Assembly: GCA_026003215.1 (NCBI GenBank)
Contig: BPGV01000001.1
Coordinates: forward strand, 2,202,466 to 2,266,465
DNA length: 64,000 nt
Direction of reading: 5' to 3'
Source of the DNA: Bacteroidia bacterium
GTDB taxonomy: Bacteria; Bacteroidota; Bacteroidia; SpSt-205
The notes beneath the pieces were generated by a model. It did no database searches and was not told the origin of the DNA. It saw only the letters and a list, made by a program, of their open reading frames with translations. The position numbers and the translations under genes are program-made. How positions within the stretch are numbered: the first letter of the stretch is position 1; every line of letters begins with the position of its first letter. Positions 24,618 to 53,000 of this stretch are shown one piece after another.

Positions 24618-24818
24618 ATGAAAAAGATAGCGTTAGTCGTGGTTCCCCTGCTGGGGGTGGCGCTGGCGAAAGCCGAAGCGCAAGTAGAAGTAGAAAAGGT
24701 GCACGAACGGGTGACGGTGACTGTGGGTCCGGGGAAGAACTATCGGGCGAAGCTGGCGCAGTCGTATTTTGGGGGGCGAGGGAAGTGTCGGAACTGGAAA
24801 CGTTTTTGTGGTCGGTGA
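24618..24818 (+). CDS. Small secreted cationic Cys-containing peptide (hypothetical)
   Basis: 66 aa. It has a clear signal peptide (MKKIALVVVPLLGVALAKA) and a basic C-terminus (GGRGKCRNWKRFCGR). GC-rich hairpins follow it directly. Confidence 0.3.
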   Translation: MKKIALVVVPLLGVALAKAEAQVEVEKVHERVTVTVGPGKNYRAKLAQSYFGGRGKCRNWKRFCGR

Positions 24819-24825
24819 GTGGAGG

Positions 24826-24880
24826 CCTGCTTAGGCAGGCCTTTTTGTGGGGCGGTGCAGCCGCCTGTGGCGGCTGCACC
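24826..24880. terminator. Two consecutive GC-rich perfect hairpins (ggcctgc-ttag-gcaggcc; ggcggtgcagccgcc-tgt-ggcggctgcaccgcc)
   Basis: Inverted repeats read directly from the sequence, with a T-run (ctttttgtgg) between them. They belong to a hairpin family seen elsewhere in the window. Confidence 0.45.
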
Positions 24881-25355
24881 GCCCCCTGCTTTTTACTAAA
24901 CTTGTCCTGGGCAAACATGTCCCCCTTTTTCTGGCTCCAACTCTGGGGCACCCCTCTCGCCCTGGCTTCAGAGGTTGCCCCCCGCTATACCTACCTACCG
25001 CTACGGTAGGCGCTCATAGACTGCGACTCGCTTCTGCGGCACGCCGGGCTGAAGGATACCATAACCTCCTTATGGGAGCCGTGAGAGGGCTATCGTTTAG
25101 CGCAGACTGCTAACGGAGTTACTCTCTCTGCAGGCGACACCCTCGGGTGGATATATGGTTTGTATGCCCTTCTGCAAGAGAAGTGGGGTTTTGTCTTCAT
25201 GCATCCGCAGGTCACGGTGCGCACGGATCATTTGCCCTGCTGGCGGGTACTGGAAGCGGTCCCTCGTTTCTCTTGGCGAGGATTGCATTTGCGTACGCAG
25301 CACCCTATCGAGCTTACCGAACCTTTACTGATCCTTCTTTTCCCGAGGGAGAGCG

Positions 25356-33922: not shown

Positions 33923-35216
33923 CTTGGCCCAGATTCGCGTAGAAGGTATAGCCGCTGTGGTAGGGGATGAGATTATTTTAGAGTCCCAAGTAGCGCAGCA
34001 GTATGCTTATCTTAAGCAGATGGGCCATGCCGATGATGGGGGCTTATACTGTGAGGTACTGGAGCAGTTGATTGTCCAAAAACTTTTGCTGGTACGAGCC
34101 CGGTTAGACAGCCTTAAGGTCTCTGACGAACAGGTGGAAAGGGAGTTAGAACGGCGCTTGCAGATTCTTACAGCGCAGTTGGGTTCCCCAGAAGCCATCG
34201 TAGAAATTTACGGAAGGCCACTTCCTGTCCTGAAACAAGATCTACGAGCTGAGGTCCGTAATCAGATTTTAGCTGAGGAAATGCGCCAAAAGATCCTCCA
34301 AGAGGTGAAGGTAACCCCCCAAGAAGTGCGGGACTTCTTTCGCAGTATTCCGCCGGACAGCCTGCCGTACGTGCCCGCAGAAGTAGAGCTGAGTCAGATT
34401 GTGGTATGGGCGAAGCCTTCCGCCGCTGAAAAGGAGGCTACCCGGAGCCGGTTAGAACAGATTCGGCAAGAGATCGTGGCTGGTAAGATGGATTTTGCTT
34501 CTGCGGCGCGGGCTTTCTCGCAGGATGTGGGTTCGGCGCGGCAAGGCGGGGCCCTCGGCGAGTTTAGCCGCGGCCAGATGGTTCCCGAATTTGAACGCAT
34601 GGCTTTTTCTGTGCCTATCGGTGAGGTCTCCCCCGTGTTTGAAACGCCGTACGGCTTCCATATCCTCCTGGTAGAGAAGCGGGTAGGCAATAAAGTGCAA
34701 GCTCGGCATATCCTCTTGCAACCAGCGATTACGGAGGCAGATGTAGAGACGGCTCGACACCAGTTAGAGGACCTGCGCGAGCGTATTTTACGAGATAGTA
34801 TCACCTTCGCTCGGGCGGTGGTGGAGTTTTCTGAGGATATTCCTACCAAGCAGGCAGGGGGTAGGCTCATGGATGAAGAAACAGGCAGTTATAGACTGCC
34901 GCTGGATAAACTGGATGCAGAGCTGTATTTTATTGTGGATGGCCTGCGACCAGGGGATATCTCCCCGGCGCATGCTTTCACAGCCAAGGATGGACGTAAA
35001 GGCGTGCGGATTGTTTGGCTTCAGCGGCGCTATCCGCCGCATAGAGCTTCCTTGGAGCTGGATTATGAGCGGTTTGCGGAGGCAGCCCTCGAGTTGAAGA
35101 AACAAGAAGCAGTAGCCCGGTGGTTAGAGAAAGCACGTAAAAATGTGCCCGTAGAAATACGGGCGGAGCGGTGCGCCGAGGCCCTTTCAGAGTGGGAACG
35201 GGGAAGGGAAAAGTAG
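33849..35216 (+). CDS. SurA-like periplasmic chaperone/PPIase (SurA_N + two parvulin domains)
   Basis: Parvulin cores (QGGALGEFSRGQMVPEF, ARHILLQP..., GGRLMDEE...), with the start chosen at a signal-like Met (ATG at 33849). The upstream alternative at 33804 is also possible. Confidence 0.6.
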   Translation: MRGCPLLKIPFISGLWPVLMCGSISLAQIRVEGIAAVVGDEIILESQVAQQYAYLKQMGHADDGGLYCEVLEQLIVQKLLLVRARLDSLKVSDEQVERELERRLQILTAQLGSPEAIVEIYGRPLPVLKQDLRAEVRNQILAEEMRQKILQEVKVTPQEVRDFFRSIPPDSLPYVPAEVELSQIVVWAKPSAAEKEATRSRLEQIRQEIVAGKMDFASAARAFSQDVGSARQGGALGEFSRGQMVPEFERMAFSVPIGEVSPVFETPYGFHILLVEKRVGNKVQARHILLQPAITEADVETARHQLEDLRERILRDSITFARAVVEFSEDIPTKQAGGRLMDEETGSYRLPLDKLDAELYFIVDGLRPGDISPAHAFTAKDGRKGVRIVWLQRRYPPHRASLELDYERFAEAALELKKQEAVARWLEKARKNVPVEIRAERCAEALSEWERGREK

Positions 35217-35220
35217 GGGG

Positions 35221-35297
35221 GCGGGCGGCGGCGCCGCCACAGCGGCGCCGCCGCCCGCATAAAAAAGGGGCGGGGCGGCCGTAGGCCGCCCCGCCCC
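35221..35297. terminator. Bidirectional terminator region made of two GC-only perfect hairpins between convergent genes
   Basis: gcgggcggcggcgccgcc-acag-cggcgccgccgcccgc and ggggcggggcggcc-gtag-gccgccccgcccc, flanked by A/T runs (ataaaaaa, caaaaaatc). Confidence 0.55.
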
Positions 35298-35321: not shown

Positions 35322-37256
35322 TTATCGAGCCATGTCCGCCTTGATGAGCCGTATCGTTCGGACTTCTCCGCCATAGCTTACCACCGCATTATAGTTGCCC
35401 GCCGCTACTTGACTTAGGATACCGCTCAAATCCAGCGTATGTGTACCGGCGGCGAGGGTATAGTCACTTTTTACGACCAGCTTACCTGCGGCGTCATACA
35501 GCTGGAAGGACATAGGGCCTTCGGCGGGGAGAGAGACAAGCAGTTGGGCTTCGGTAACCACGGGGTTCGGTTGGAGCTGTACGGAGAAGCTTTCGCCTGC
35601 GCCGGGAAGCATCGCTTCCACAGTATTAGAATAGCGGATATTGCCGAAGATGTCGTGCTGTTCTACGCGGTAGAAGTAGCGGGTGAGGGGTTTCACGTAT
35701 TCATCTCGGTGGGTATAGCGGGTGCGTCCTTGCTTATCTACTTGGGCGATGCGGGTGAAGGCTACGCCGTCTGTACTACGGTAGAGTTCATACCCTAAGA
35801 TTTCGGGTCTTTCGGGGGAGACTTCCCAGGTGAGGGCGATAGCCGCGCCGGTAGGGGCAGCCGCTAATCGTATATCCTCGGAGGGGAGGGGGGCATTATT
35901 AGCAATCACCGTGGCGTAGAAGTAGGTACCGTTTTGGTTGTATGAGGTGAAGCCGGTACGCGTCACATCCCAGCCGGTGGAGTTGCCCTCACAGTTATTG
36001 GGGGGGGTAAGGAGGCCGCTAGTTGGGGCTTGGTTGTACCCTACATAGCAAAGATTAGTGGGGTAGTTGTTCCAGACGGGGTCGGAGCCGCCGGGAAGGC
36101 CGGTGCTGGTGCCTGCGGCGGGGCAGTTGCCAGTAGTGGTGGCGTTAGTGACGGTGCGGTTATACATGCGTACGCTGCTGGGACCGGAAGGAGTAGAGGG
36201 AGTTGTCGCATCTACGGCTGCAAAAGGCATGATTTCCCAGCGTCCGTTGTTGAGAGGGTTGTATTGACGGGAGGCGCCGGGGTCGCCCGGTCGGCAATAG
36301 GGAGGCTGAGTGAAGGGAGCTTGTACGGTAGGGTCAAACCGTACGCGCACATAATGGGCTGCGGCTGGGGTGACTTCTACGCCTTGCAGGCCATAGCCAT
36401 TGGGGGGAGTACCTATGGGAGCTGCTCCTACGGCAAAGGGATAGGCGGTGGCCGCAGCTACATTCCGCCGGAGGTAGCCGTATACGTAGCGGTCTTGGTT
36501 ATCGGGGTCCAAGGTAGCAAAGGAAGCGGGCTGGGCAGGCGCCCATGGAGTCCGGACTACGGCGTTAGCAGCTGGGTTGAGGACGCGCACTTCCAGCTGC
36601 GTGCCAAGACCAGCACCTGTGGTATGAATGCGCCCACTGACAAAGGTGAGGGTATTTCCTACCCAGATGTCTATGTAAGTTTCTCCTACGGGGATGGTAC
36701 AGATACCAGGACCAGTGTATGTCCCATCGGACGCATAGTCCGATCCCTCACAATCAATCGTGACGAAGCGCCCAGCCAGATTGGTATTGGTATTGTTGAT
36801 GCGGACATCATAAAAGGTCCAATCTTGTGAGTTACCCGAGCCATTCCGGATAGCAACGAGCTGGGGGGCATTTGCCCCGTTGAACTCTATGGTACCCCCG
36901 AGGGTAGTATTCCCGTTGGCATTCCATGTGCCTGTGGAGCGATGGGCACCTGAGATATTGTGGTAATGGCCTTGGAGGTAAATCCACGAGTTTGGGCGGG
37001 AGTTGACTTCGGCGCCTTGTCCAATCTTGAAGTGGCCGCGGTAGCCGCCGCTTCCATCCACGCAGCGGATGGTGCCGAGGTTTTCCAGGACGCCGTTATT
37101 GGTTCCGTTATCGTTGGTCTGCATGCCGCCCTGGACATATACCAGCGCACCGGATTGGACATAGACCAGTGCGCCTTGGTTGAAAAAGAGGTCCGGTTGT
37201 GCCCAGAGCAGCGCACCTGCCCAGCAAGCCAAATGGATAAGTGTCTGTCGTCTCAT
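35322..37256 (-). CDS. T9SS-secreted protein (fibronectin-III-like domain + C-terminal type-A sorting domain)
   Basis: Signal peptide (LIHLACWAGALLWAQ) and a C-terminal ~80-aa Por_Secre_tail-like domain (...FQLYDAAGKLVVKS...YNAVVSYGGEVRTIRLIK). Confidence 0.65.
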   Translation of the reverse strand: MRRQTLIHLACWAGALLWAQPDLFFNQGALVYVQSGALVYVQGGMQTNDNGTNNGVLENLGTIRCVDGSGGYRGHFKIGQGAEVNSRPNSWIYLQGHYHNISGAHRSTGTWNANGNTTLGGTIEFNGANAPQLVAIRNGSGNSQDWTFYDVRINNTNTNLAGRFVTIDCEGSDYASDGTYTGPGICTIPVGETYIDIWVGNTLTFVSGRIHTTGAGLGTQLEVRVLNPAANAVVRTPWAPAQPASFATLDPDNQDRYVYGYLRRNVAAATAYPFAVGAAPIGTPPNGYGLQGVEVTPAAAHYVRVRFDPTVQAPFTQPPYCRPGDPGASRQYNPLNNGRWEIMPFAAVDATTPSTPSGPSSVRMYNRTVTNATTTGNCPAAGTSTGLPGGSDPVWNNYPTNLCYVGYNQAPTSGLLTPPNNCEGNSTGWDVTRTGFTSYNQNGTYFYATVIANNAPLPSEDIRLAAAPTGAAIALTWEVSPERPEILGYELYRSTDGVAFTRIAQVDKQGRTRYTHRDEYVKPLTRYFYRVEQHDIFGNIRYSNTVEAMLPGAGESFSVQLQPNPVVTEAQLLVSLPAEGPMSFQLYDAAGKLVVKSDYTLAAGTHTLDLSGILSQVAAGNYNAVVSYGGEVRTIRLIKADMAR

Positions 37257-37274
37257 AGGTATCGCGAATTTAGA

Positions 37275-38222
37275 CTAAGGTACGGCGACTTTTTGAAACT
37301 TCCAAATGGGGTAGGTAGGTCGGCATAGGGCGTAGGCTTGCGGCTGGCCGGCCGGCGAGATTTTCCACAATCCTACTACAGCTCGGGCCCAGGTAGCCTT
37401 GCGCCGAGCGACGGGTTCGGTTTTGCAGCCGCTGCCGCTCACTACCACCCACTTATTAGAGGCAAGCTGGTGGATTTGTAGGTTATGGTCATGTCCAGAG
37501 AGGAGCAGTACGGGGCCCTGGGCCCCTTCTACATGCCGAAGTAAGCTATCCGCTAAGCGAGCATACCCCGGAAAGGCTAAGTCTGTGGGGTGCTTGCGGG
37601 CTTTCCGAGCTACGATAAAGAGAGTACCTATGCCGGGAAGGGGTATCCACAGGTATTTACTCAGCACCCGCAAGGGAAAAAGGTGAGCTATTAGCGGAAA
37701 ATAGCCTCCATGCGCGCCGGCGGTTTTAGGGGGGTGATGTAGGATGATTACGCACAGACGCTTGTCTAAAAGCAGGCTGTCTATGAGGCGCCAGTGGAAA
37801 GCTTGCGCGCGGGCGGAGTCTCGGATGAGCCGTTCAGAGTCTAAAAAAATGAGGAGCCAGTCGGGTCGGGAGAGGGTATCTGGGCCCACACGCCCAGGCA
37901 GGGGTTTGTGAGGGAGGGTTTCGGCTTGGTAGGAAAGTCCGGTGAGGCCGGCCTTCCAGTCGTGGTTACCTGGCGTGGCCCACACCTCACCGGGAAAAGC
38001 ATGCGCTACTTGGAGGAGCCTTTCCCAGCGTTTTTTATCTCTTTTTCGGCCACGATAGCCTGCAGGATAAAGGTTATCCCCTAAAAAGAGAAGGATATCC
38101 CCTTTTTGTGCGTGCTTCTGCCAGAAGTGCTTATATAGCTGCACTTGCCGAGCTGTAAGGGCTCCGGCGTCTCCTACGGCAAAAAGGGTTTGTAGCCAAA
38201 GATACGTTGCTACTAAGAGCAC
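37275..38222 (-). CDS. Calcineurin-like metallophosphoesterase
   Basis: GDNLYP, ATPGNHDW and GHDH motifs, with a signal peptide. Confidence 0.75.
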   Translation of the reverse strand: MLLVATYLWLQTLFAVGDAGALTARQVQLYKHFWQKHAQKGDILLFLGDNLYPAGYRGRKRDKKRWERLLQVAHAFPGEVWATPGNHDWKAGLTGLSYQAETLPHKPLPGRVGPDTLSRPDWLLIFLDSERLIRDSARAQAFHWRLIDSLLLDKRLCVIILHHPPKTAGAHGGYFPLIAHLFPLRVLSKYLWIPLPGIGTLFIVARKARKHPTDLAFPGYARLADSLLRHVEGAQGPVLLLSGHDHNLQIHQLASNKWVVVSGSGCKTEPVARRKATWARAVVGLWKISPAGQPQAYALCRPTYPIWKFQKVAVP

Positions 38223-38225
38223 GGA

Positions 38226-38867
38226 TTACTGAGTTCCCTCGCCGCGAGCTAACATTTCTTTGGCTTCTTTCATGGTGATGCGTACGCCGTCTTTGAAGGG
38301 CACTATCCACGCATCCCGGATACCCAGGCGCTTGATATCTTTTTGGAAGGCTTCCGCCAGCTCTAAGCTGCGGAATCGGCCTACCGTATAGCGGTTGATA
38401 TCGCCTAAGGCTTCCGCCTCAAAGAAGGGGTTATCCTGCGCGTACTTGCGCATGTCAAAAAGGCGAAAAGCCCCTATCTGCACTTTGAACACCAGCCCGG
38501 GCATCACATCCAAGCGAGCTTGCTTTTTTTCCGCTTCATAGGCGGCTTTGAGCCGTAGCACTTCACTTTGCAATGAGTCAAACGAATACTGCCGAGCCCG
38601 CAGTTGGTCCTCTAACTGGGCCACCTGCTCGGCCAGCTCCCGATTGCGTCGCTGGAGTTCTTCTATTTGCCTGTCTCTATCTTGTACTTGTTTTTGGAAG
38701 CTTTCTTCCCGAGCCTTGAGAGCTAAGGGGTTTTTTACATAACTTTTAGCTTTTTTCTTCCACTCCTTTTTGAGCTGCTTCTGAGGGTCGCCTCCTTTCT
38801 TTTTTTGCTGGGCTGGAAGGAGATTTATCCCCAGAAAAAGGCTTAGGACAAGTAATGGCCAGCGCAT
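38226..38867 (-). CDS. Secreted coiled-coil protein with a C-terminal SPOR-like peptidoglycan-binding domain
   Basis: Signal peptide, a long charged coiled coil, and a C-terminal FKVQIGAFRL...RYTVGRFRS...DAWIV pattern typical of SPOR repeats. Confidence 0.45.
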   Translation of the reverse strand: MRWPLLVLSLFLGINLLPAQQKKKGGDPQKQLKKEWKKKAKSYVKNPLALKAREESFQKQVQDRDRQIEELQRRNRELAEQVAQLEDQLRARQYSFDSLQSEVLRLKAAYEAEKKQARLDVMPGLVFKVQIGAFRLFDMRKYAQDNPFFEAEALGDINRYTVGRFRSLELAEAFQKDIKRLGIRDAWIVPFKDGVRITMKEAKEMLARGEGTQ

Positions 38868-38885
38868 GCTACAAAGTAAGTAGAT

Positions 38886-41030
38886 TTGTCTGGTATGGCT
38901 CGGCTGCTTTTACTGGGATTGGGGATAATCTGGGCACAAGTGGGCTTGCGGCGGATTGCTCCGCCGGTCGTAATGGCCCAGGAAACCCTACTTAATCCTT
39001 GGACAGGCGGGTGGAATGCACCGCAGTTTTCTACTATAGATGGCGATGGGGATGGGATAGCAGAGCTCTTTGTGTTTGACCGAGCCGATAACCGAGCTTT
39101 TCTTTTCCAAGCTACGCCTCAGGGCTGGCGATGGATGCCTCAGGGAGATACCCTTTTCCCCACCGAAAAGCTTTCCGCTTGGGTGCTTCTGCGGGATTAT
39201 GACGGGGATGGAGATAAAGACCTCTTTACAGCGGTAGGGTCAAATATCCGAGTGTTCCAAAATATAGCTTCAGCCGGGGCTCCCCCCCGGTGGCGTCTGG
39301 CTTATGATACCCTTAGCTCGGTGTATTATGGGAGTTCTACTTATCTCTACTGCGGCTCCATAGACATACCCACCCTCACCGACATAGATAACGACGGCGA
39401 TACAGACCTCTTAGTTTATGAGGTACTGGGGAGCCTGATAGAATGGCACCGTAACCAAGCGCAAGAGCTTTTCGGTCGGGCAGATACCCTTATCTTCGTG
39501 CTTCAGTCGGGCTGCTGGGGCCATGTGTTTGAAAACTACGACTACAACACCAATCAGTTTTCGTTTGTTTCGTATACCTGCGGTGCGGGACAAAGAACCT
39601 CAGGCGAGGGCCGTACCTATCATAGTGGAGGCACCATTTTAGCCATAGACCTTAATAAAGATGGTCTAAAAGACCTGATTGTAGGGGATGATGGACCGCC
39701 TTATTTGATTACCGGCTTCAATAGCGGCTCGCTCCAAGTCGCGCATATAGACCCGGCTACGGCTATCTCGCCGTATCCGCCTTTGGCGCCGGCGTATATG
39801 CCGAGTTTTCCTGCCACCTATTATGAAGATGGAACAGGGGATGGTTTGCCCGATCTAATAGTCGCCAATAACAGCCCGTTGGCGGGACGCGACACTTGGA
39901 GCGTGTGGCTGTATCCCAATACGGCGCGAGCTGACTCCCCCCACTGGGCTATGCCCATAGGGGGATGGCTCCACCGCAGCCAGATAGACATCGGTACAGC
40001 GGCTCATCCTACTTTGGCGGACCTCAATCGCGATGGGTATCCCGACCTGCTCCTAAGCTGCGAAGGCTTCTACACCGATACCGGCCAAAAGGCGCGAGCC
40101 TACCTTTTCTGGGGTTCTGCCACAGGCTTTACGCTGGCCGACTCTAACTGGCTGAGCCTGCCTACCTACACCTTGCGCAATCCTGTTTTTACGGTCGGAG
40201 ATATAGACGCGAATGGGCGTACAGACCTTTTGATGGGTACCAGTACGGGGGCTTTATGGCGCTGGGAAGAAAACAGCCCGGGCAGCGCCAGCTTTTCGCT
40301 CCTTACCCAGAACTTCGCTGGGATTAGCGGGCCAGCCTTTGCGGCGCCGCTCCTCTATGACTACGACCAAGACGGCGACCTGGACCTCGTCATAGGCGGA
40401 CGGCCCGGCCGCCTCTCCCTCTATCGGCAAGAAGCCGGCGGCACCTTCACCCACATAACCGACTCCTTGGGCCAAATCTTCATGAATGATACCCTCAGTA
40501 CTTTCTTAGGTTTTACCCGGCCAGCCCTAATAGACCTTAATAAGGACGGCACCTTAGAGCTACTGGTAGGGAACCTGACGGGTTTTTTGTGGGTGTACCT
40601 CCCGGACTGGAATACTCCCACAGCCCCTTGGCCTAAGGTGGCAGAGCTACCTTATGCCGGAGGCAAGCGGGCCAGCCCCACCGTATGGATGACACCTGAC
40701 TCGGTACTCTTACTGGTAGGTACCTTGCGCGGTGGAGTGCAAGCTTTTACCCTTGCGCCAGGAGGGCCGACGGCGAATGTCCTCCCCGCTGCCCAGCCTA
40801 AACCCTATGCCGTGTCTGTGCAGGGGCCAGGGCTGCACTTCGTAGCCAATGCGCCTTTGGAAGTGGAGGTATACACGCTTTTGGGAGAGCGGTTGCAGCG
40901 GTTTAGCGGCGTGGGGGAATTAAAGTGGGCTGTGCCAGGGCCAGGGGTATATGTCCTGCGGGTTTGGAGTGGGGTAGGGTTATGGGTGGAGAAGGTGTGG
41001 GTGGGGGGGGAGGGGGTGCCAGCGCCGTAG
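38886..41030 (+). CDS. FG-GAP/VCBS-repeat secreted protein with a T9SS C-terminal sorting domain
   Basis: Repeated DxDGDGxxDL calcium-binding FG-GAP motifs (DGDGDKDLF, DNDGDTDLLV, DANGRTDLL, DQDGDLDLV). The C-terminal ~80 aa are CTD-like (VEVYTLLGERL...VYVLRVWSG). Confidence 0.65.
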   Translation: MSGMARLLLLGLGIIWAQVGLRRIAPPVVMAQETLLNPWTGGWNAPQFSTIDGDGDGIAELFVFDRADNRAFLFQATPQGWRWMPQGDTLFPTEKLSAWVLLRDYDGDGDKDLFTAVGSNIRVFQNIASAGAPPRWRLAYDTLSSVYYGSSTYLYCGSIDIPTLTDIDNDGDTDLLVYEVLGSLIEWHRNQAQELFGRADTLIFVLQSGCWGHVFENYDYNTNQFSFVSYTCGAGQRTSGEGRTYHSGGTILAIDLNKDGLKDLIVGDDGPPYLITGFNSGSLQVAHIDPATAISPYPPLAPAYMPSFPATYYEDGTGDGLPDLIVANNSPLAGRDTWSVWLYPNTARADSPHWAMPIGGWLHRSQIDIGTAAHPTLADLNRDGYPDLLLSCEGFYTDTGQKARAYLFWGSATGFTLADSNWLSLPTYTLRNPVFTVGDIDANGRTDLLMGTSTGALWRWEENSPGSASFSLLTQNFAGISGPAFAAPLLYDYDQDGDLDLVIGGRPGRLSLYRQEAGGTFTHITDSLGQIFMNDTLSTFLGFTRPALIDLNKDGTLELLVGNLTGFLWVYLPDWNTPTAPWPKVAELPYAGGKRASPTVWMTPDSVLLLVGTLRGGVQAFTLAPGGPTANVLPAAQPKPYAVSVQGPGLHFVANAPLEVEVYTLLGERLQRFSGVGELKWAVPGPGVYVLRVWSGVGLWVEKVWVGGEGVPAP

Positions 41031-41118
41031 GCGCTGGCACCCCGTATGGGGCCGGGCGGGCCGCAGGCCCGGCCGGCCCAGCGGCGGCCGCTGCCGCAGG
41101 CAGCGGCCGCCGCTCCCT
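41015..41118. repeat. GC-rich triple-hairpin element, copy 1 (paralogous to 45786-45886)
   Basis: Three consecutive perfect palindromes: ggtgccagcgcc-gtag-gcgctggcacc, gggccgggcgggcc-gcag-gcccggccggccc and gcggcggccgctgcc-gca-ggcagcggccgccgc. It overlaps the stop codon of the FG-GAP gene. Confidence 0.65.
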
Positions 41119-41153
41119 TAGTTCTTTGTAAGAAACTTTTCTTTAACTTCGCT

Positions 41154-41513
41154 ATGATGCGCACTCTACCCTTTCTCTTCGTAGCTTGCTTTGTAAATGT
41201 CGGATGGGCCCAGCAATCGGCCGTTCCCCCGGCCGAGAAACTTGCCCATTATGAAGTCGTAGCTATCTGCCAGGACTGTAAGCCGGGGGCACCCGTAGAG
41301 CCGTACTTTGCGCAGGTACGGCAGCGTATGCTCCAGAAGGTGGGCATTTATGCGGTGCAGCTGGTGCGGGCAGAGGGGGACCAGCTAACCTTCCGCATCA
41401 GCGTAGCGCCAGACTTTCCTCAGGCCGACCTGTACGAAGTGTGCCGTTGGACCGGCTTAGCCGTACGAAGCCTCCTCCCTGCCCCACCCGAAAAACCTAC
41501 TAAAACCGAATAA
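41154..41513 (+). CDS. Small secreted protein (hypothetical, 119 aa)
   Basis: Signal peptide MMRTLPFLFVACFVNVGWAQ, with ATG at 41154. The longer track ORF starting at 41046 begins inside the hairpin repeat and is an artefact. Confidence 0.35.
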   Translation: MMRTLPFLFVACFVNVGWAQQSAVPPAEKLAHYEVVAICQDCKPGAPVEPYFAQVRQRMLQKVGIYAVQLVRAEGDQLTFRISVAPDFPQADLYEVCRWTGLAVRSLLPAPPEKPTKTE

Positions 41514-41516
41514 CCT

Positions 41517-44500
41517 ATGCGTCTCGTAGGCATATATGGGCTTGCTTCGCTTCTATGGGCACAGACTATCTTAGTGAACGGTACAGGTGCGGGTTCCTTT
41601 GAAGGGGGCACGGGTTGTACTGGTAACTCTTATACTGTGGATGGCTGGACCATCGTTAATGGCACGCAGACCAACCGCTGGGCTGTCAATACCGGCGCTG
41701 GGGCCCAGCATGGCAGCCGGGCTATCTATATCACGAATAACTGTGGCGCTACCCCCCCCTCCTAATTCGTATACTATAACTTCTTCCTCCGTTGTACATT
41801 TTTATCGGGATGTGGCGCTGCCAGCAGGAGAGCCTTACATGACTATTTCGTTTTATGTAAAGGTCGAGGGAGAAGGCACTACTACTCAGTATGATTATTT
41901 GGATGTTTTGGTGGCCCCGACGAGTGTAACGCCTGCGGCAGGTACTGAGGTGAGTAGCACCTATCGGCTGGCGCGGTATAACCTACTGGGGAGTAGTTGG
42001 GTGCAGCGGACAGTGCGCTTTTGTGGGACAGGAGGGCAGACCTACCGGGTGATATTTTCTTGGCGGAATGATGCATCGGCGGGCACGCAGCCGCCCGCTG
42101 CCGTAGATCAAGTGCATATCACCAGTTCGGCTACGCCGCCTCCTACGCCCTGGATTGTGAATGTTTCTGCCCTCCCCTACAGCCACGGCGCTGATAATAC
42201 CTGTGGGAAAGGGAATAACCTCACCAGCAGCAATGTGTCTCCTACTTGCGGGAGTACTTCCTATTATGGTGGGGAGGATATGGTATGGGTTTTCACGCCG
42301 AACAGCTCTGGTATGGTTACGATTACGCTGAATGCTTCTACTACCTATACGGGTCTTAAGTTGTATCAGGGGGGGACGCTCAATCCGTGTGGCGGGCTCA
42401 CGGGGGCCACCTGCGTAGGCGAGGCAAACTCGGGGTCGAGCACCGCCAGTAACCTTACCCTCACTGCCTGTGTTCAGCCCGGGCAGACCTACTACCTGCA
42501 AGTAGATTATTGGCCTTCTCCTACGTGCGGTGCGATTACGAATCTCACTATTTCGGCGCCAACGCCCCTGGAGCCTGTACAGGCTTGGGTACGGGCGTGA
42601 CGACCGTCACCGCGCTTCCCTACAATAGCGGAGCCGGCACTACGTGTGGCGCTGTGGATGACATCACCTCCAGTAACGCGTGGAGCTGTGGGAGTAGCAG
42701 CTACTTTACCGGGGAGGATAGGGTATGGGTCTTCACGCCTACCACCTCGGGCGCCGTAACGATTACCCTGACCCACAGTAATGCCAGCTCGCCCTGGTTT
42801 GGTCTGAAGGTGTATGAGGGCTGCCCGCGTACTTCCAGTTGCGGGGTATGTGTAGGCTCTTGTGAAAGTAGTAGTGGGCCTTATTCCTTTAATGTAAATG
42901 TCACAGCGGGGAAGACCTATTATGTGGTATTGGATCATTATGCCTCGCCTGCTTGCGCTTCGTATGACAATCTGTCCATCTCTGCCCCAGTGAGTGGGGG
43001 AGGCGGAGCCTGTGGGTCGCCGGTCCTCTCCAGCTTTCCGGTGATTACGACGGGCACGACTGCTGGGGCGCCGCCGTTGGGGGTCTCGCCGAGTTGTGCC
43101 GTAGGGGGTAGCTGTGGAGGGGGTGGCGCTGTCGGACGGTGGTATCAGTTTATCCCTACGGCTTCCAATATGACTATTCATGTAGCGCCGGGCACCCTTA
43201 CCGACCCCGCCGTGGTTGTATTCAGCGCGCCTTCGTGTGGTGGGCCTTTCACAGAGATAGCCTGTCAGCAGGATGGTAGCAACACGGGGAATGACTGTGA
43301 GAGTTTTCCCTACTATGCCCATTTAGACCTTACCGGGCTTACCGTGGGGCAGACCTACTACATAGCAGTTTTTGGGGCGTCAGGCAGTGGGGATTATACC
43401 TTGGCGATATGGGAGACGGCCGCGCAGCCTCCTTCGCAGTTTGGGCAGGACTGTAACGCGATATCGGGCAACCCCGCCACCGGTCCGCTCCCCGTATGTA
43501 GTTCTACCTTTTCGGTGGGTGCACCGGGTTTTTTGGGGTCTGGTTTTACCTGTGACCTGCCGTATCCTGCCTCAGGTTGTCCAGGAAGTTGCCTGACCAG
43601 TGGAGAACGGAATATTGTTTGGCTCCGCCTCCCGATTGCCAGTAGTGGTAACCTCTCCTTTGCCATCACCCCCGCTCAAAATGTAGACTACGACTGGACC
43701 TTGTACCGTATAGATAATGTGTCTAACCCCTGCCAAGCTATACGTAATGGCACATTGCAGCCTGTAAGGTGTAGTTATGATGCGCCTACCTCGTGCGATG
43801 GCACCTATGGTACAGGGGTAGCGTGTGGTACGCCGGGGTGTGCTTCCGGCACCTGTGAAGGATCAAGCGGGCAAGGGTGGCTGCAGTGCCTACCCGTAAA
43901 TGCCGGCGAGGTGTATCTTTTAGGGATTTCTAACTTTAGCACGAGTACCTTTCCCGGGTTTAGTGTAGATTTTGGGACATCGCCGATTGATTATGGAGCG
44001 GCGAGTGCAGGACCGGCGGTGTGGACGGGCGGCGGCGGCACCACCGCCTGGAATAACAACGCCAACTGGGGTGGGTGCGCCTTTCCAGATAACTGTGCCA
44101 AGGATGTGGTAATCTACGGCGGCGCCGCTAACCAGCCGGTGATTGCTGCTGCAGAGACCTGGACGGTACAAAATATCACCATTCCTGCTGGGGCTAAGCT
44201 CACCGTCAATGGCACCCTCAACGTCTGCGGTCACCTCACCGTAAATGGGGAGCTGGACGGCACCGGCTGGATTGTGTTTGTTGGGGGGGCTGCTTACCCG
44301 GTGCAGGAGATACGCGGCGTGCTCACAGGGCCTACCCAATACATCCCCAACCTGCGCATAAACCGTGCTGCCGCCGGGACGGTGCGCCTCATGACCAACG
44401 TCCAAGTGCGTGGCCATGTGCAAATAGACAATAGCGCCAATAACACCCTGAACCTCAACAGCTATACCTTATTCGTAGGGGGGAACTTCGTAAATGTGGG

Positions 44501-45782
44501 GGCAGCTGGGACCTTTACCCATGGCAATGGTAGGGTTGTCTTCAACGGCACTGGCCCACAGACCTATACCGACCCCGGCATAGACCCCTTCTATACCGTA
44601 GAGATGAACCAAAATCCCCCCTCCACCCTCACACTCAATAATCGCATGGACATCACGAATCAGCTTACGCTCACTTCGGGGGTGATTGTTACGGGCACAA
44701 ATGAGGTTCGGGTAACCAATACCGCCACTACGGCTGTGACCCCCGGCAACACCAATAGCTATGTGCGAGGATACCTTCGGCGGTATATTGGAGGTATGGG
44801 CGGGTATGACTTTCCGGTGGGTACTGCCTCGTACCAGCGGGCAAATGTGAACTTCACTGCGGCACCGGGGGTACATAACCTCTTAGCGTGGTTCAACGAT
44901 TGGGCTCCTTCTCCGCCGACCCCGCCTAATCCCACTGCGGAGTGCGGCGCTCAATACCACGCTTGTCCCATGCTGAATAACGGCTACTGGACTATCAATG
45001 CCTATAATAGCAGCTTTGCGCAGGTGACTTCCAGTGGTACTTACACGATGACGCTCTACAATACGGCCTATACGGCGTGTGCGGGAGCTGTACAATTCGG
45101 GGTATTGAAGAATACGGGCGCTGGGTGGTTCATTCAAAACCCGGGCTGTTATGCCAATGCCAGTGCAGCGACGGTTCAGCGGCCGGGCATGAGCGGCTTC
45201 TCTAACTTTGGTACGGGACAAAGCCTCACCCCTCTGCCGGTGTATCTCACCCGCTGGGAAGGGGAGGTTCGGCCGGATGAGTCGCACCTGCTGCGGTGGG
45301 ATGTGGTGGCGGAGGAGACGCGGGTTTCTCGCTTTGTGGTAGAGACAGGCGCTGCGCCGGAGGCACTCTCTCCATGGCGTACCTTCGGCCCCGAAGTACG
45401 GCAAGCTGTGCGGGAAAATCCGCCGTTTGGCAGCTCCTTCTATCGGCTGCGTATTTACACGGTGGAAGGGGCCGAGTTTGCGAGTTCGGTGATAGAGCTG
45501 CAGCGGGGAGTGGGGAGTATCAATCCCTTGCAAAGTCTGGAAGCCTTCCCGAATCCTACGACGGGAGAACTTACGGTGCGCTTTATGGTAGGTGAGCTGA
45601 CTCCGGTGCATTTGTCGCTGGTGAATGCGCTGGGGCAGCGCGTATGGGAAAAGGTAGTGGAGCCTGCGGCTAAGGGATGGGTGGAGGTGCCGGTGGATAT
45701 GCGGGCTTTGCCGGTGGGGCCGTATCTATTGCGGGTAGAGGGCGAAGGGGTAGTGCGGACGCGGGTGGTAGTGCGTGAGTGA
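41517..45782 (+). pseudogene. Giant T9SS-secreted adhesin-like protein split into three frames (41517-41765, 41587-42600, 42510-45782). Domains: Cys-rich domains, PPC-like, right-handed beta-helix, type-A CTD
   Basis: Signal peptide at 41517. The first frame change is exactly at a C8 tract (41752-41759), where C7 would give a continuous reading. A second frame change lies between 42556 and 42600, near a cccc run. Two tandem ~130-aa Cys-containing domains (ALPY..TCG..GED.VWVFTP..VTITL..GLK.Y.G..YY..NL.ISAP) bridge the breaks in the correct order. The CTD is ...HLSLVNALGQRVWEK...YLLRVEGEGVVRTRVVV. Confidence 0.6.
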
Positions 45783-45785
45783 GTA

Positions 45786-45886
45786 GGGGCGCCAGCGCCT
45801 GCGGCGCTGGCGCCCCGTATGGGGCCGGGCGGGCCTGCGGCCCGCCCGGCCCCGCGGCGGCCGCTGCCACAGGCAGCGGCCGCCGC
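45786..45886. repeat. GC-rich triple-hairpin element, copy 2 (about 90% identical to copy 1)
   Basis: ggggcgccagcgcc-tgc-ggcgctggcgcccc, ggggccgggcgggcc-tgc-ggcccgcccggcccc and gcggcggccgctgcc-aca-ggcagcggccgccgc. It lies immediately after the stop of the giant T9SS gene. Confidence 0.65.
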
Positions 45887-45891
45887 CCCCT

Positions 45892-46248
45892 TTATAACTG
45901 CACTTGCCCCGTGTAGTCTATCCCCTTATACGTTATCCGATACCGATAGCTGCCCGCTAACCCCTTTGCCCCAGGCAAACGCCGCTCCCGCTTCCCATTC
46001 AGACTGGGCCACTGGAAAAAATACACCACTGAATCCCCTTTCCCCAAAAGCCGCAGTTCTACCATCCCGTCAAAGGGGATTTCATAGCGTATGCTCAGCG
46101 CATCTTCACCTTCTTTTGTCAAAGCTTCCAGTTTGAAGGTGTTTTGTTTTTTGAGCGGCTGGGGGGGTTGGGCGTAGGTTATCCCGCCCCACACGCACAG
46201 AGCTATTATTTGAGCTTGGATAAAAGCAGGTAATCGCAATCGGTCCAT
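45892..46248 (-). CDS. Small secreted hypothetical protein (118 aa)
   Basis: Signal-like N-terminus (AFIQAQIIALCVWGGITYAQ). ORF only. Confidence 0.3.
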   Translation of the reverse strand: MDRLRLPAFIQAQIIALCVWGGITYAQPPQPLKKQNTFKLEALTKEGEDALSIRYEIPFDGMVELRLLGKGDSVVYFFQWPSLNGKRERRLPGAKGLAGSYRYRITYKGIDYTGQVQL

Positions 46249-50026: not shown

Positions 50027-53000
50027 ATGGGCCGACTTTTGCTAAGGCTGCTATGGATAGGCGGGCTACTCGCACAAGAATGCGATATCATTTATGTCAC
50101 CCCGAATGGTGCCACCGGGCCTGGCGCCGGGACCCGCGATAATCCCGCCGAGCTCAACTATGCTATTGCTAACCTCCTCACGCCTACTATCCGCCGCATC
50201 TACCTGGGCTATGGGATTTACACCTTGACGCAGCCCCTCCCCCTCCATAACGGTCTACAACTGGAAGGGGGCTTTGACCCCAGCCAAGCCTGGGTAAAAA
50301 CCAACCTTTACCCTACTATCCTCTTCCGAGCAGCAGTGAATCCCCAGTCTAACCCCAGCCGGCTCGTGGCTATAGAGGGTATAAATGTGAACGGCTTCCG
50401 CATACAAGACCTGGAGGTGTATGTGGAGGATGCGACGGCCTTGGGGGCAGGTACTACTACCTATGCCCTCTATTTGAATGGGTGCAGCAACTATGTGGTG
50501 AATCGCTGTCGGTTTTCGGCGGGGGCGGGGGCGAATGGCGACCCTGGTCAAAATGGCGCTGCAGGCCGCAATGGGGCGGCTGGACAGATAGGCCAGCAAG
50601 GGGATGAAGATGCCGGCTGCTGCCGAGCCGGGGGCGCAGGCGGCAATAGCTGGTCGGGCGGTCTCGTAGCCGGCGGCCGCGGCGGCGACGGCGGCCAACG
50701 TGGCACCTGTGGCCCTGGTGGCCAAGCTTATAATGGCGCGCCGGGCCAACAAGGTATCCCTCCCTCTCCCCAGCCGTATGCACCCGCAGGCGGCGCCGGA
50801 GGGGCTGGCGGCGTAGGAAATAGCTCTATCATTTCTTTGGGGTGTGACAACTTCGCTGCTCAGAATGGCGCCGATGGACAGCCTGGCCAAGATGGAACCA
50901 ATGGCGCTGCTGGGGGGCCCGGTACGCCTACCCATGCCGGCGGCTTCTTTCGCCCAGGCGATGGGCAGGACGGCCAAGATGGCCAGCATGGCTCCGGCGG
51001 CGGGGGCGGCGGTGGTGGCGGTAGCCAAGGTAATCTGCTATGTTTTCCGTCTAATCTTAACGGGACAGGTGCCGGCGGCGGCGGCGGTGGAGAAGGCGGC
51101 GAAGGGGGCAAAGGCGGCAAAGGCGGCGGGGGCGGCGGCGGCTCCTTCGGCATCTACCTCTGGAATAACGGCGCTAATGCCCTCTTTGTGGATGTAATAG
51201 CCGCATCCAGCTTGCCGGGAGCCGGCGCCCCAGGAGGATTTGGCGGCATCGGCGGCATAGGGGGCAGTGGCGGCTGCGGTGGCGCTCGCGGCTGCGCCGG
51301 CCAGCCTAACGCTTGCGATATTGGCTATGGCGGTAACGGCGGCCGTGGGGGCAACGGGGGGAACGGCGGCAACGGCGGCCCAGGCGTCGCCGGCCTCGCC
51401 CAAGACGTCTATATCTCTGCGGGTAGCACAGCGCCTACCCTCTCGTCCTTCCGCAGTCCCGACGAACCTAAAATCTTTGTGCGTTACACTGGCTGCACCG
51501 AGCGTACCGTGAAACTTTGGACCGATGCGGCGGGCTACATCGTCTGGTTCTTCGGGCCAGGGAGTACCCCCCCTACAGCTATCGGCGATACCGTCACTAC
51601 CCGCTATACGACCCTCGGCCGTAAAAGCCTTTCCCTCATCGTCAATGGCCAGACCTACACCTATTACGAGTTTTTGGACATTCGGGATGATGGGACGGGT
51701 ACTAATCCTACCTTCACGCAAAGTGCCGATACGGTATGCTTAGGCGGGCAAGTCACCTTCACCAGCAGCTTAGCTGGTGCCGCTAACTACCTCTGGGACT
51801 TCGGCGGAGGCGCCCCGCCTGTCTCTGGCCCCCTCAATAACATAGCCCAGCCGACCTTCAATACCCCAGGTACTTTTGTGGTGACCCACCAGACCTATTC
51901 GCCCTGCTGCGGCTGGTCTGACCCCTACCAGGATACCATAGTGGTTTTGCCCACGCCCGCTCCTACGCTGACTATACAAACCTCTACGGGTTCTACGGAA
52001 ACGTGCGAGGGTACGCCTGTTATCTTTACCGCTCAGCTCCAAAACTTTGCGCCCAATCCGACCATCACTTGGCAGGTGAATGGTACCCCCCGCAGGCACG
52101 GGCCAGACCTTTATCCTCACCAATCCCCAGCCGGGCGACCAAGTGCAAGCCATCGCCATCGGCAATACCGCCTGTTCCCGAGGACAGCCCATTTCGTCTA
52201 ATACGATCACCCTTACTGTCCATCCCCGTCCTGTTATTCAGCCGCTGGCAGTGGGCTGCTTCCAAATCACAGGGAACCTTGTGCCCGGAGACCTGATTAC
52301 GCTCTCGGCTTCGGTCTCGGGCGGGAGCGTGCCCTATCAGTTTTATTGGGACTTAGGGGATGGGCGCGGCGCTACAGGCAATCCCGCTACCGTCATGTAT
52401 CCTACTGCGGGTACTTACCGCTTGCGGCTTACAGTAGTAGATGCCAACGGCTGTACCAGCAGTAATACCGCTGCTTGCGAGACTACCTTGGTGATTGCTT
52501 ATCGGCCGGTGGCGGCCTTCTCGGCCACGCCTCTCCAGGGCTGCCCACCCCTCACGGTCTCCTTCACGAACCAGAGCATCTACGCAAACGCTTACCTCTG
52601 GGACTTTGGCGATGGCTCTCCCACTACCACTCAGCTTAACCCCATGCATACTTACACTACCTCAGGCGAATACACGGTTACTTTATACGCCATCTCGGCA
52701 GGAAACAACGATACGGCCACCGTGCAAAATCAAGTGGTGGTCTATCCCGTACCGGTGGCAGATTTCTCGGTATTCCCGCCCGTACTTTATGAAGCCGATA
52801 CTGCCTATTTTGTCTCTCAGGCGCAAGGGGCAAGTAGCTGGCTGTGGTTCTTTGGCGACCCTGCTAACCCTAACGCCTCGTCCACCGACCCGAACCCCTC
52901 GTACTTTTACGCACAACCGGGCAGCTATACGGTCACCCTCATCGTAACCAACCTCTACGGCTGTAAAGATACTTTGGTCAAGACGGATGCCGTTATAAAA

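Follow-up and report, generated by a model that had tools for sequence, protein, structure and literature searches.

E. coli BIMEs are mixed arrays of palindromic units joined by short fixed linkers at operon 3' ends or between genes, with established roles in mRNA 3' stabilisation, weak termination and protein binding. Their units are imperfect palindromes that alternate in orientation. A close known type is the GTAG-tagged REPs (Di Nocera, De Gregorio & Rocco 2013, PMC3733652), short GC-rich extragenic palindromes with 2-4-nt loops that lie mostly between convergent or unidirectional ORFs, about 20 nt or less from ORF 3' ends, and whose GTAG termini often supply a TAG stop codon. They occur as singletons, dimers and groups, with several families per genome; stems measure 6-13 bp across the 24 GTAG families, of which the long-stem GTAG-24 is especially relevant here, and for the Bacteroidetes the survey lists CGTC-type but not GTAG-type repeats. 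In REPIN-RAYT systems (Bertels & Rainey 2011, PMC3116915; PMC6006769), inverted REP doublets with a spacer are proposed to move as ssDNA hairpins beside a conserved tetranucleotide with no target duplication, and TnpA-REP subclasses 2.4 and 2.6 are found in Bacteroidetes (PMC6006769). Hairpins of two other kinds are also comparable: Rho-independent terminators, which place a GC-rich stem-loop directly 3' of genes, and the template-switch hairpins of structured RNA genes (Monttinen & Loytynoja 2022, PMC8794818), in which stems are perfect and single events give rise to loop inversions and to compensatory or symmetric stem changes.

Here we describe two triple-hairpin arrays, copy 1 (41013-41114) and copy 2 (45786-45886), in a 64-kb stretch of Bacteroidia DNA (the window). 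On the best reading of their sequence, the elements most closely resemble known REP/BIME repeats. The features of the locus are as follows.

38886-41030, plus strand: FG-GAP/VCBS repeat protein gene, the 3' end of which extends into copy 1
41009-41012, plus strand: tetranucleotide heading copy 1 (window sequence GGAG; three further strains have GTAG)
41013-41043: H1 of copy 1, perfect 14-bp stem, loop GTA
41048-41080: H2 of copy 1, loop GCA, stem with a single internal G.G mismatch; the linker GTAT (41044-41047) lies between H1 and H2
41080-41114: H3 of copy 1, perfect 16-bp stem, loop GCA, with a NotI-type GCGGCCGC core
41154-41513, plus strand: small secreted-protein gene, with copy 1 lying 43 nt upstream
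41517-45782, plus strand: large adhesin-like gene, its ORF split in the window by frameshifts at C-runs
45783-45786, plus strand: GTAG head of copy 2, directly 3' of the adhesin stop codon TGA (45780-45782)
45786-45816: H1 of copy 2, perfect 14-bp stem, loop TGC
45821-45853: H2 of copy 2, perfect 15-bp stem, loop TGC (the GCA loop of copy 1 H2, reverse-complemented)
45854-45886: H3 of copy 2, perfect 15-bp stem, loop ACA
45892-46248, minus strand: 118-aa ORF, convergent on copy 2

Each array consists of three GC-rich hairpins with stems of 14-16 bp and loops of 3 nt, in the constant unit order H1-GTAT-H2-H3. The original prediction had described two triple-hairpin copies of about 100 bp that are roughly 90% identical, and both the positions and the similarity hold: column identity is 90% in a MAFFT alignment and 89% over the repeat pair 41013-41119/45786-45892 (family D7 of an ungapped repeat finder). 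Patterns for H1, H2 and H3 matched at copies 1 and 2 alone within the window, where shuffles expect 0 matches. Folding, the proposed check, gave three adjacent hairpins for each copy, at -112 kcal/mol for copy 1 and -117 kcal/mol for copy 2 (z about -9 to -10), with equal values on the opposite strand. Other details needed adjustment. The three palindromes of each copy were said to be perfect, which is true of all but the mismatched H2 of copy 1; a GC content above 85% in a 57% GC genome fits copy 2 (89%), while copy 1 stands at 85% and the window at 54.3%. The elements were also said to start on or immediately after stop codons. The adhesin TGA ends 3 nt before H1 of copy 2, and the FG-GAP stop codon TAG (41028-41030) falls within the H1 loop of copy 1; in the three strains with GTAG at the head of that copy, the TAG of the head is the FG-GAP stop codon. 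At the other end of the locus, H3 of copy 2 ends 5 nt short of the TAA codon (45892-45894) that closes the convergent 118-aa ORF.

The arrays are not long-read assembly artefacts, because Illumina-only Logan contigs carry the whole of copy 1 (L046) and the whole of copy 2 (L048) with window-identical sequences and a second MAG, GCA_026416395.1, carries both. Rfam 15 gave no match at gathering score anywhere in the window, and between 40.9 and 46.1 kb it returned sub-threshold chance matches alone (18-25 bits against cut-offs of 50-110). No target duplication surrounds either copy, and the pairing of terminal inverted repeats with such a duplication that defines a MITE is thus absent. The attC and CRISPR readings were set aside on anatomy.

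The units belong to a class of their own in this genome. The window has nine GC hairpins of this class in four intergenic clusters, those outside the arrays being the following.

24849-24885: Ha, a lone GC palindrome, 17-bp stem, loop TGT
35213-35297: two-hairpin cluster between convergent genes
35221-35258: Hb, 17-bp stem, loop CACA
35267-35297: Hc, 14-bp stem, loop GTA, followed on the minus strand by TTTTTTAT

Eight perfect stems of at least 12 bp were observed against 0.01 expected from 100 dinucleotide shuffles, and sliding folds of 40 nt give -38 to -46 kcal/mol at the four clusters and never fall below -24.5 in the rest of the window. The units measure 31-38 nt, within the 20-40 bp of REP palindromes, with stems of 14-17 bp, Watson-Crick throughout and free of G.T pairs, and loops of 3-4 nt. 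All four clusters sit at gene 3' ends, 0-30 nt past the upstream stop codon, two of them between convergent and two between unidirectional genes; Ha lies directly 3' of the canonical terminator of a 66-aa gene (24618-24818). The tetranucleotide GTAG heads the first unit at 35213-35216, where it provides the TAG stop of a SurA-like gene, at 45783-45786 and, in L011, L043 and L049, also at copy 1. In this position the window has GGAG for copy 1 and GT+GG for Ha; among the inner units, H2 carries GTAT or ATAT, and H3, Hc and an inserted H0 are untagged. The sequences of H1, H2, H3, Ha, Hb and Hc are too divergent to show a common descent. Extending the flanks by about 9 kb and 7 kb via flanking proteins revealed no further GC palindromes in those ~16 kb. 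Over the ~80 kb of the source species covered out of its 2.27-Mb genome, the exact three-unit array occurs at two sites.

These units share with the GTAG-tagged REPs their short GC-rich palindromes and small loops, their extragenic position near the 3' ends of convergent or unidirectional genes, in some clusters a GTAG head that may give a TAG stop, and the occurrence of single, paired and grouped units of several kinds. They differ in that their stems are perfect and 14-17 bp long, their GC content is 84-97%, and a clean GTAG is limited to the first unit of a cluster. Mixed units, short fixed linkers and the placement of the arrays recall the BIMEs, although here three different palindromes follow one fixed order. 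Since the units are perfect palindromes, their orientation can be read from the loops alone, and the loops differ and flip between copies and strains. With REPIN-RAYT systems the units share the proposed mode of movement, but they are not arranged as inverted doublets. The REP/BIME-like character put forward in the original prediction is thus borne out by short, clustered, GTAG-headed extragenic palindromes at gene 3' ends and by related units elsewhere. If correctly placed, the repeats would make an uncultivated thermophilic Bacteroidia lineage one more carrier of the GTAG-headed REP/BIME type, in an extreme form whose perfect stems are nearly all G and C.

Comparisons between strains show the repeats in action: a unit has been inserted, loops have flipped and stems have undergone compensatory changes. 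In L043, a 38-nt Ha-like unit sits between GTAG and H1 without target duplication; it is absent from the window, L011, L046 and L049. Between strains, 5 of 88 stem columns vary, compared with 8 of 9 in the loops and 15 of 24 in linkers and flanks, and H1 shows a compensatory T-A to C-G replacement. Two loops are exactly inverted between strains of 99% identity, one at 24849 (TGT/ACA) and one at 35221 (CACA/TGTG). Ha and a hairpin of L021, a contig of a related species with Ha-like hairpins, differ by the symmetric loss of one T-A pair. H1 stems with the loop TTC start contigs L024 and L025, about 150-230 nt upstream of a PPIase gene; in the species concerned the PPIase is 74-75% identical, and this H1 locus differs from the window locus. 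At least three further units were found in ~190 kb from 13 related MAGs, a lower bound because short-read assemblies break at the hairpins. The H3 core had 0 matches in a genome-contig collection, which therefore does not hold the source species; four H3 matches in metagenome contigs were chance hits inside high-GC coding sequence. Scans of viral contigs for H1, H2 and H3 gave 0 matches, and a HMMER search of a two-sequence profile of the spurious translation against 1.84 billion protein representatives gave nothing.

We consider it somewhat better than an even bet that the triple-hairpin elements are BIME-like clusters of REP-like units, the first of them GTAG-headed, that arose and act as follows. 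The units are probably mobile as single-stranded hairpins: single units would spread as ssDNA, entering 3' of GTAG in the manner of IS200/IS605-type Y1 (RAYT/TnpA-REP) elements, without target duplication. In a compact genome, such insertions would survive solely behind stop codons, and clusters would therefore abut stops and grow by stacking. Intrastrand template switching during replication, for which loop inversion and stem repair are documented (PMC8794818), would keep the pairing perfect and flip the loops. The two arrays would owe their paralogy to the copying of all three units as one block. Transcription of the arrays is predicted to place RNA hairpins, each of -35 to -46 kcal/mol, 3' on the message of the upstream gene, where they could block 3' exonucleases or hinder the polymerase and the terminating ribosome; in this way they may insulate three parts of the locus from each other, namely the FG-GAP gene, the operon of small gene and adhesin, and the convergent genes. 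They would not be borders of a mobile adhesin cassette. A tblastn search of 437 kb of DNA with approximate E. coli RAYT and IS608 TnpA queries found no Y1/RAYT gene.

That the arrays might be strong terminators, as also put forward originally, is plausible given the extreme stability of the hairpins, but no T-run follows either triple array on either strand, as an intrinsic terminator would need within 0-2 nt of its hairpin. Unlike Rho-independent terminators, the arrays are moreover paralogous, with stems roughly double the length of those in the window's canonical terminators. Of the GC palindromes, a terminator scan of 34-48 kb listed Hc alone (35297-35267, minus strand). A wider version of this idea seems unlikely to us: each cluster would be no more than a selected RNA structure that arose in place (a terminator or insulator lacking a U-tract, or a 3' stabiliser fit for growth at about 52 C), one three-hairpin block would have been duplicated once, and nothing would be mobile. 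It would account well for very stable folds on both strands, for the position of each cluster downstream of a gene, for the textbook T-run of Hc on the minus strand and for loops that drift while stems are conserved, and the source is a hot spring at 52 C (PMC9671151). It fits poorly with the missing T-runs of both arrays, with an Ha that adds nothing obvious behind an ordinary terminator, and with the canonical terminators of 7-12-bp stems used by other genes of the window; identical stem sequences at non-orthologous loci of other species and a unit inserted in one strain alone also speak against it. Replication template switching could by itself make and copy palindromes, with foldbacks fixed where tolerated, behind stop codons, and neither transposase nor selected function involved; perfect Watson-Crick stems without G.T pairs, exact loop inversion, the symmetric T-A pair deletion between Ha and L021 and a documented mechanism (PMC8794818) all agree with this. 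Yet template switching alone, which we regard as improbable, leaves unexplained the identical stems at unlinked loci of different species, the recurrent GTAG head and the copying of a 100-nt array, linker included, to a site 4.7 kb distant; the published cases concern structured RNA genes and likewise leave dispersal to new loci unexplained.

Recombination of the bracketed adhesin cassette had been suggested as well, with the presence or absence of the 4.7-kb unit in strains as the comparison to make. The unit proved present in all assemblies that span the locus, together with both elements in GCA_026416395.1 and in JGI/Logan contigs, and the block of divergence between the two MAGs (~36.4-42.4 kb) has its right border at 42.4 kb, inside the adhesin gene and not at an element. 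Because each array is palindromic, the copies are inverted as well as direct repeats, so that an H2 crossover could invert the small-gene/adhesin segment (phase variation) and direct recombination could delete it. Over 32 nt the H2 units of the two copies are indeed 97% complementary (repeat I1), and the sole hint of rearrangement, the 939-nt contig L044 (JGI 3300038964), has the junction expected of an inversion: it links the reverse complement of the sequence just beyond copy 2, by way of H3, H2 and H3 of copy 1 in inverted form, to the small gene. L044 is a single contig, however, probably of low coverage, and could be an assembly chimera. Sharing a palindrome of 32 nt can lead a de Bruijn assembler astray or bring about PCR template switching. 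Five other assemblies (L011, L013, L046, L048 and the window) are in standard order, searches for the reciprocal junction via the adhesin, the 118-aa ORF and the FG-GAP proteins found standard arrangements only, and no recombinase, integrase or resolvase is among the Pfam matches of the genes called at 20-57 kb of the window. We therefore find it very unlikely that the arrays are recombination sites for this segment. Just as doubtful is the bolder combination in which they serve as a recombinase-free inversion switch of the small-gene/adhesin operon and the GC hairpins are a live mobile family in hot-spring Bacteroidia; if it were true, inverted H2-H2 pairing would flip the 4.7-kb segment, as L044 suggests, and mobile hairpins would insert 3' of GTAG stop contexts and remodel the 3' ends of surface-protein genes.

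The genes preceding the arrays had been taken for T9SS cargo, for which the adhesin offers a weak sorting-domain match (Pfam, 23.7 bits against a cut-off of 27), while no such domain was detected in the FG-GAP protein. Secreted or cargo-like genes precede three of the four hairpin clusters, and two further clear cargo genes in the window lack hairpins; the association of hairpins with T9SS cargo in the window is weak. The adhesin-like gene is a single 1421-aa ORF in GCA_026416395.1.

The hairpins are blind spots of short-read sequencing. More than ten Illumina contigs stop or become poly-G/poly-C exactly at hairpins, and because short-read contigs fail there, MAGs of this lineage fragment and the elements are under-reported in public assemblies. 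In annotation they also give rise to spurious ORFs and to false extensions at the N or C terminus: copy 1 lends the small secreted-protein gene a spurious N-terminal extension from 41046, and the spurious ORF beginning MGPGGP, anticipated in the original prediction, occurs in public protein sets as P0010.

By exact protein matches (GIV24254-GIV24295), the window derives from a metagenome-assembled genome (MAG KatS3mg025) recovered by long-read metagenomics from Katase hot spring at 52 C (PMC9671151). For comparison we used a second, conspecific MAG, which covers most of the window (GCA_026416395.1, contig JAOAFG010000019.1, loci L011 and L014), together with related hot-spring Bacteroidia MAGs that a search with the PPIase gene had retrieved (66-79% identity). 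The original prediction of two paralogous GC-rich triple-hairpin elements of about 100 bp was confirmed. Copy 1 lies at 41013-41114 and copy 2 at 45786-45886, they are 89-90% identical, and both have the layout H1 - GTAT - H2 - H3:

H1: GGGG(Y)GCCAGCGCC, loop, complement; 14-bp stem
H2: GGGGCCGGGCGGGCC, loop, complement; 15-bp stem, with one G.G mismatch in copy 1
H3: GCGGCGGCCGCTGCC, loop, complement; 15-16-bp stem

Copy 1 is reproduced base for base in an Illumina-only contig (L046, DRR290133), as is copy 2 in another (L048, DRR101366), and the second MAG has both. Most stems are the perfect palindromes that had been proposed, the H2 mismatch being the exception. GC content, described as over 85% in a 57% GC genome, is 85% in copy 1 and 89% in copy 2, against 54.3% for the window. 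Within the window, each of the three hairpin patterns matches its copy 1 and copy 2 sites only (0 expected). Folding the transcripts, as had been suggested, predicted three adjacent hairpins per array whichever strand is read, with energies of -106 to -117 kcal/mol and z from -8.5 to -9.8. The arrays had no match in Rfam. In one DRR290133 Illumina contig (L013:6228-6232), copy 2 carries a 36-nt deletion between 5-nt direct repeats (window 45828-45863) that removes H2; this may be a variant carried by part of the population, or the polymerase may have skipped the hairpin.

A perfect-hairpin scan found further GC palindromes of the same class in the window:

24849-24885: Ha, 17-bp stem, loop TGT
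35221-35258: Hb, 17-bp stem, loop CACA
35267-35297: Hc, 14-bp stem, loop GTA

In 100 dinucleotide shuffles the mean number was 0.01, compared with eight perfect stems of 12 bp or more in the window. When the 64 kb were folded in sliding 40-nt segments, four clusters (Ha, Hb/Hc, copy 1 and copy 2) reached -38 to -46 kcal/mol and everything else stayed at or above -24.5 kcal/mol, a gap that makes the GC hairpins a discrete class. Ordinary terminators are also present (8148, 12957 and 24826), with 7-12-bp stems, A/T flanks and T-runs; Ha lies directly 3' of one such terminator. The suggestion that the arrays are strong terminators is plausible in a loose sense, but no T-run follows either triple array; the one hairpin of the class that looks like a terminator is Hc, read on the minus strand.

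Many contigs of the lineage (L003, L004, L005, L012, L015, L016, L019, L024, L025 and L049) end at these hairpins or decay into poly-G/poly-C inside them. Short-read MAGs therefore fragment at the elements, which are under-counted in public assemblies, so that a database failure to find more copies is weak evidence of rarity; the H3 core had no match in the genome-contig collection that was searched. At window 35221-35297, two contigs (L001 and L015) likewise stop at the palindromes or have G and C runs in their place.

The arrays are closely fitted to the ends of genes:

38886-41030: FG-GAP/VCBS gene; its 3' end enters copy 1 and its TAG stop lies inside the H1 loop
41154: start of the small secreted-protein gene, 43 nt past H3 of copy 1, with the adhesin gene directly next
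45780-45782: TGA stop of the adhesin gene, with GTAG next
45783-45786: GTAG of copy 2, whose final G is the first base of H1
Past copy 2: convergent 118-aa ORF, its TAA 5 nt from the end of H3

Copy 2 thus occupies the entire gap between two convergent stop codons, and copy 1 stands between unidirectional genes. The tetranucleotide GTAG recurs at 35213-35216, where it is the source of the TAG stop of a SurA-like gene and is followed by Hb. At copy 1 the head reads GGAG in the window versus GTAG in the second MAG, L049 and a third strain (L043, SRR34265296), in all of which the FG-GAP stop is the TAG of the head. The window strain lost this stop through a T-to-G change, so its reading frame continues as far as the TAG of the H1 loop. 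In front of Ha stands GT, and the hairpin itself opens with GG. Of the 39 stops in the window only 10 are TAG, fewer than either alternative, and GTAG ends just two other genes; the GTAG head thus appears to be part of the element and not a matter of stop usage. The GTAG/GT head is on the plus strand in all four clusters, 3' of plus-strand genes; cumulative GC skew climbs throughout window 1-64000, the plus strand being G-rich.

The same link between a GTAG head and the stop codon is known from GTAG-tagged REPs, in which the TAG stop is often supplied by the end of the repeat itself (Di Nocera et al. 2013, PMC3733652). These REPs have loops of 2-3 nt and occur as single units, dimers or groups; convergent ones lie no more than 20 bp from both ORF ends, and unidirectional ones keep close to the upstream ORF (Di Nocera et al. 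2013, PMC3733652). The REP/BIME-like label that had been proposed holds, and the best classification of the elements is as GC palindromes of REP/BIME-like type with a GTAG head.

In a comparison of three alleles (window copy 1, copy 1 of the second MAG, and copy 2), the loops vary in 8 of 9 columns and the linkers or flanks in 15 of 24, compared with 5 of 88 columns for the stems, where one T-A pair has become C-G by compensatory change. G.T pairs are absent, which indicates that pairing is maintained on both strands. Most loops have the sequence GNA or the complementary one (GTA, GCA, TGC, TTC). C-GNA-G closes DNA mini-hairpins of unusual stability, and such loops would fit a DNA-level life of the elements. 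Between strains about 99% identical (L014, L016 and L017 compared), the Ha loop (24866-24868) is TGT or ACA and the Hb loop (35238-35241) CACA or TGTG, with unchanged stems. The H2 loops of copies 1 and 2, GCA and TGC, are related in the same way. Because these pairs are exact reverse complements on untouched stems, they represent inversions of the palindrome. Replication template switching is recognised by marks of this kind, with loop inversion, stem repair or symmetric changes each arising in a single event (PMC8794818).

From differences in placement between strains and related genomes we infer that single hairpin units move. Two contigs from the related MAGs (L024 and L025) start within an H1 hairpin (CCAGCGCC TTC GGCGCTGGCGCCCC) that precedes the PPIase gene by 150-230 nt; at the corresponding place the window has a uridine kinase gene. 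In L021, an Ha-like hairpin (GGGGGCGGCAGCCGCC TTT ...) that has symmetrically lost one T-A pair relative to Ha lies 120 nt past the SurA-like gene, approximately at the position of Hb/Hc in the window. The third strain (L043, 776-812) has a perfect Ha-like hairpin (GGGCGGCGCAGCCGCC GCA GGCGGCTGCGCCGCCC) in a 38-nt segment that separates H1 of copy 1 from the GTAG stop (window 41012/41013) and is missing in the window, L011, L046 and L049. No target duplication is visible at this insertion. H2 and H3 appear truncated in L043, possibly as an assembly effect. Y1 transposases of the IS200/IS605 type insert 3' of a fixed tetranucleotide without duplication. Bacteroidetes have RAYT/TnpA-REP subclasses 2.4 and 2.6 (PMC6006769); no RAYT/TnpA-REP gene was found in the 437 kb of DNA examined.

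The further proposal that the arrays mediate swapping or deletion of the bracketed small-gene/adhesin cassette found no support. The second MAG retains both elements and the 4.7-kb unit, as do JGI and Logan contigs spanning the locus. Its identity to the window is 99.3% up to 36.4 kb and 100% across 42.4-54.3 kb, versus 57-97% per 200-nt bin between 36.4 and 42.4 kb. This pattern suggests that a stretch of surface-protein genes at 36400-42400 has recombined or is a strain mosaic; neither of its borders falls at an element, one being in a 644-aa gene and the other within the adhesin gene. This 6-kb block comprises the N-terminus of the 644-aa protein, a metallophosphatase-like gene, a 213-aa gene, the FG-GAP gene, the small gene and the 5' part of the adhesin gene. 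Copies 1 and 2 share at most 23 nt of exact sequence, which makes them a poor substrate for homologous recombination.

One 939-nt contig (L044, JGI 3300038964) joins the reverse complement of 45822-45998 to 41048-41842 through H2, in the order reverse-complemented downstream flank of copy 2, inverted H3 (loop TGT), hybrid H2, H3 of copy 1, small gene. As the H2 copies are 97% complementary to each other over 32 nt, this is one of the two junctions predicted for segment inversion by exchange within H2. The reciprocal junction was looked for and not found; we consider a real inversion of the 4.7-kb segment improbable, and the contig could equally be an assembler or PCR chimera at the common 32-nt palindrome.

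In the second MAG the adhesin gene is one uninterrupted ORF of 1421 aa; in the window, indels at two C-runs break it up. Of these runs, 41745-41752 is C8 in the window versus C7 in the Illumina contig L046, and 42561-42564 is C4 in the window, confirmed by L013, versus C5 in GCA_026416395.1. The split may reflect any of three causes: a real frameshift, a slippage tract, or in part homopolymer error.

If transcribed, an array would place three hairpins of -35 to -46 kcal/mol each 0-5 nt past a stop codon and could shield the upstream message from 3' exonucleases. The arrays may also halt or slow the polymerase, and could impede the terminating ribosome. Liang, Rudd and Deutscher are said to have found in 2015 that E. 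coli REPs at about 15 nt or less from a stop codon hinder the terminating ribosome. Copy 1 would decouple FG-GAP expression from the small-gene/adhesin operon, and convergent genes would be shielded from one another by copy 2 and by the Hb/Hc cluster.

Repeats of other kinds also occur in the window. Long 9-nt-periodic GGN repeats at 50600-51400 and 54400-54800 correspond to glycine-rich tracts in two neighbouring PKD-domain T9SS cargo proteins, whose genes have several repeat families in common. Six tandem 126-nt repeats, 65-74% identical, lie at 2775-3704 within the gene for a 1009-aa TPR protein.
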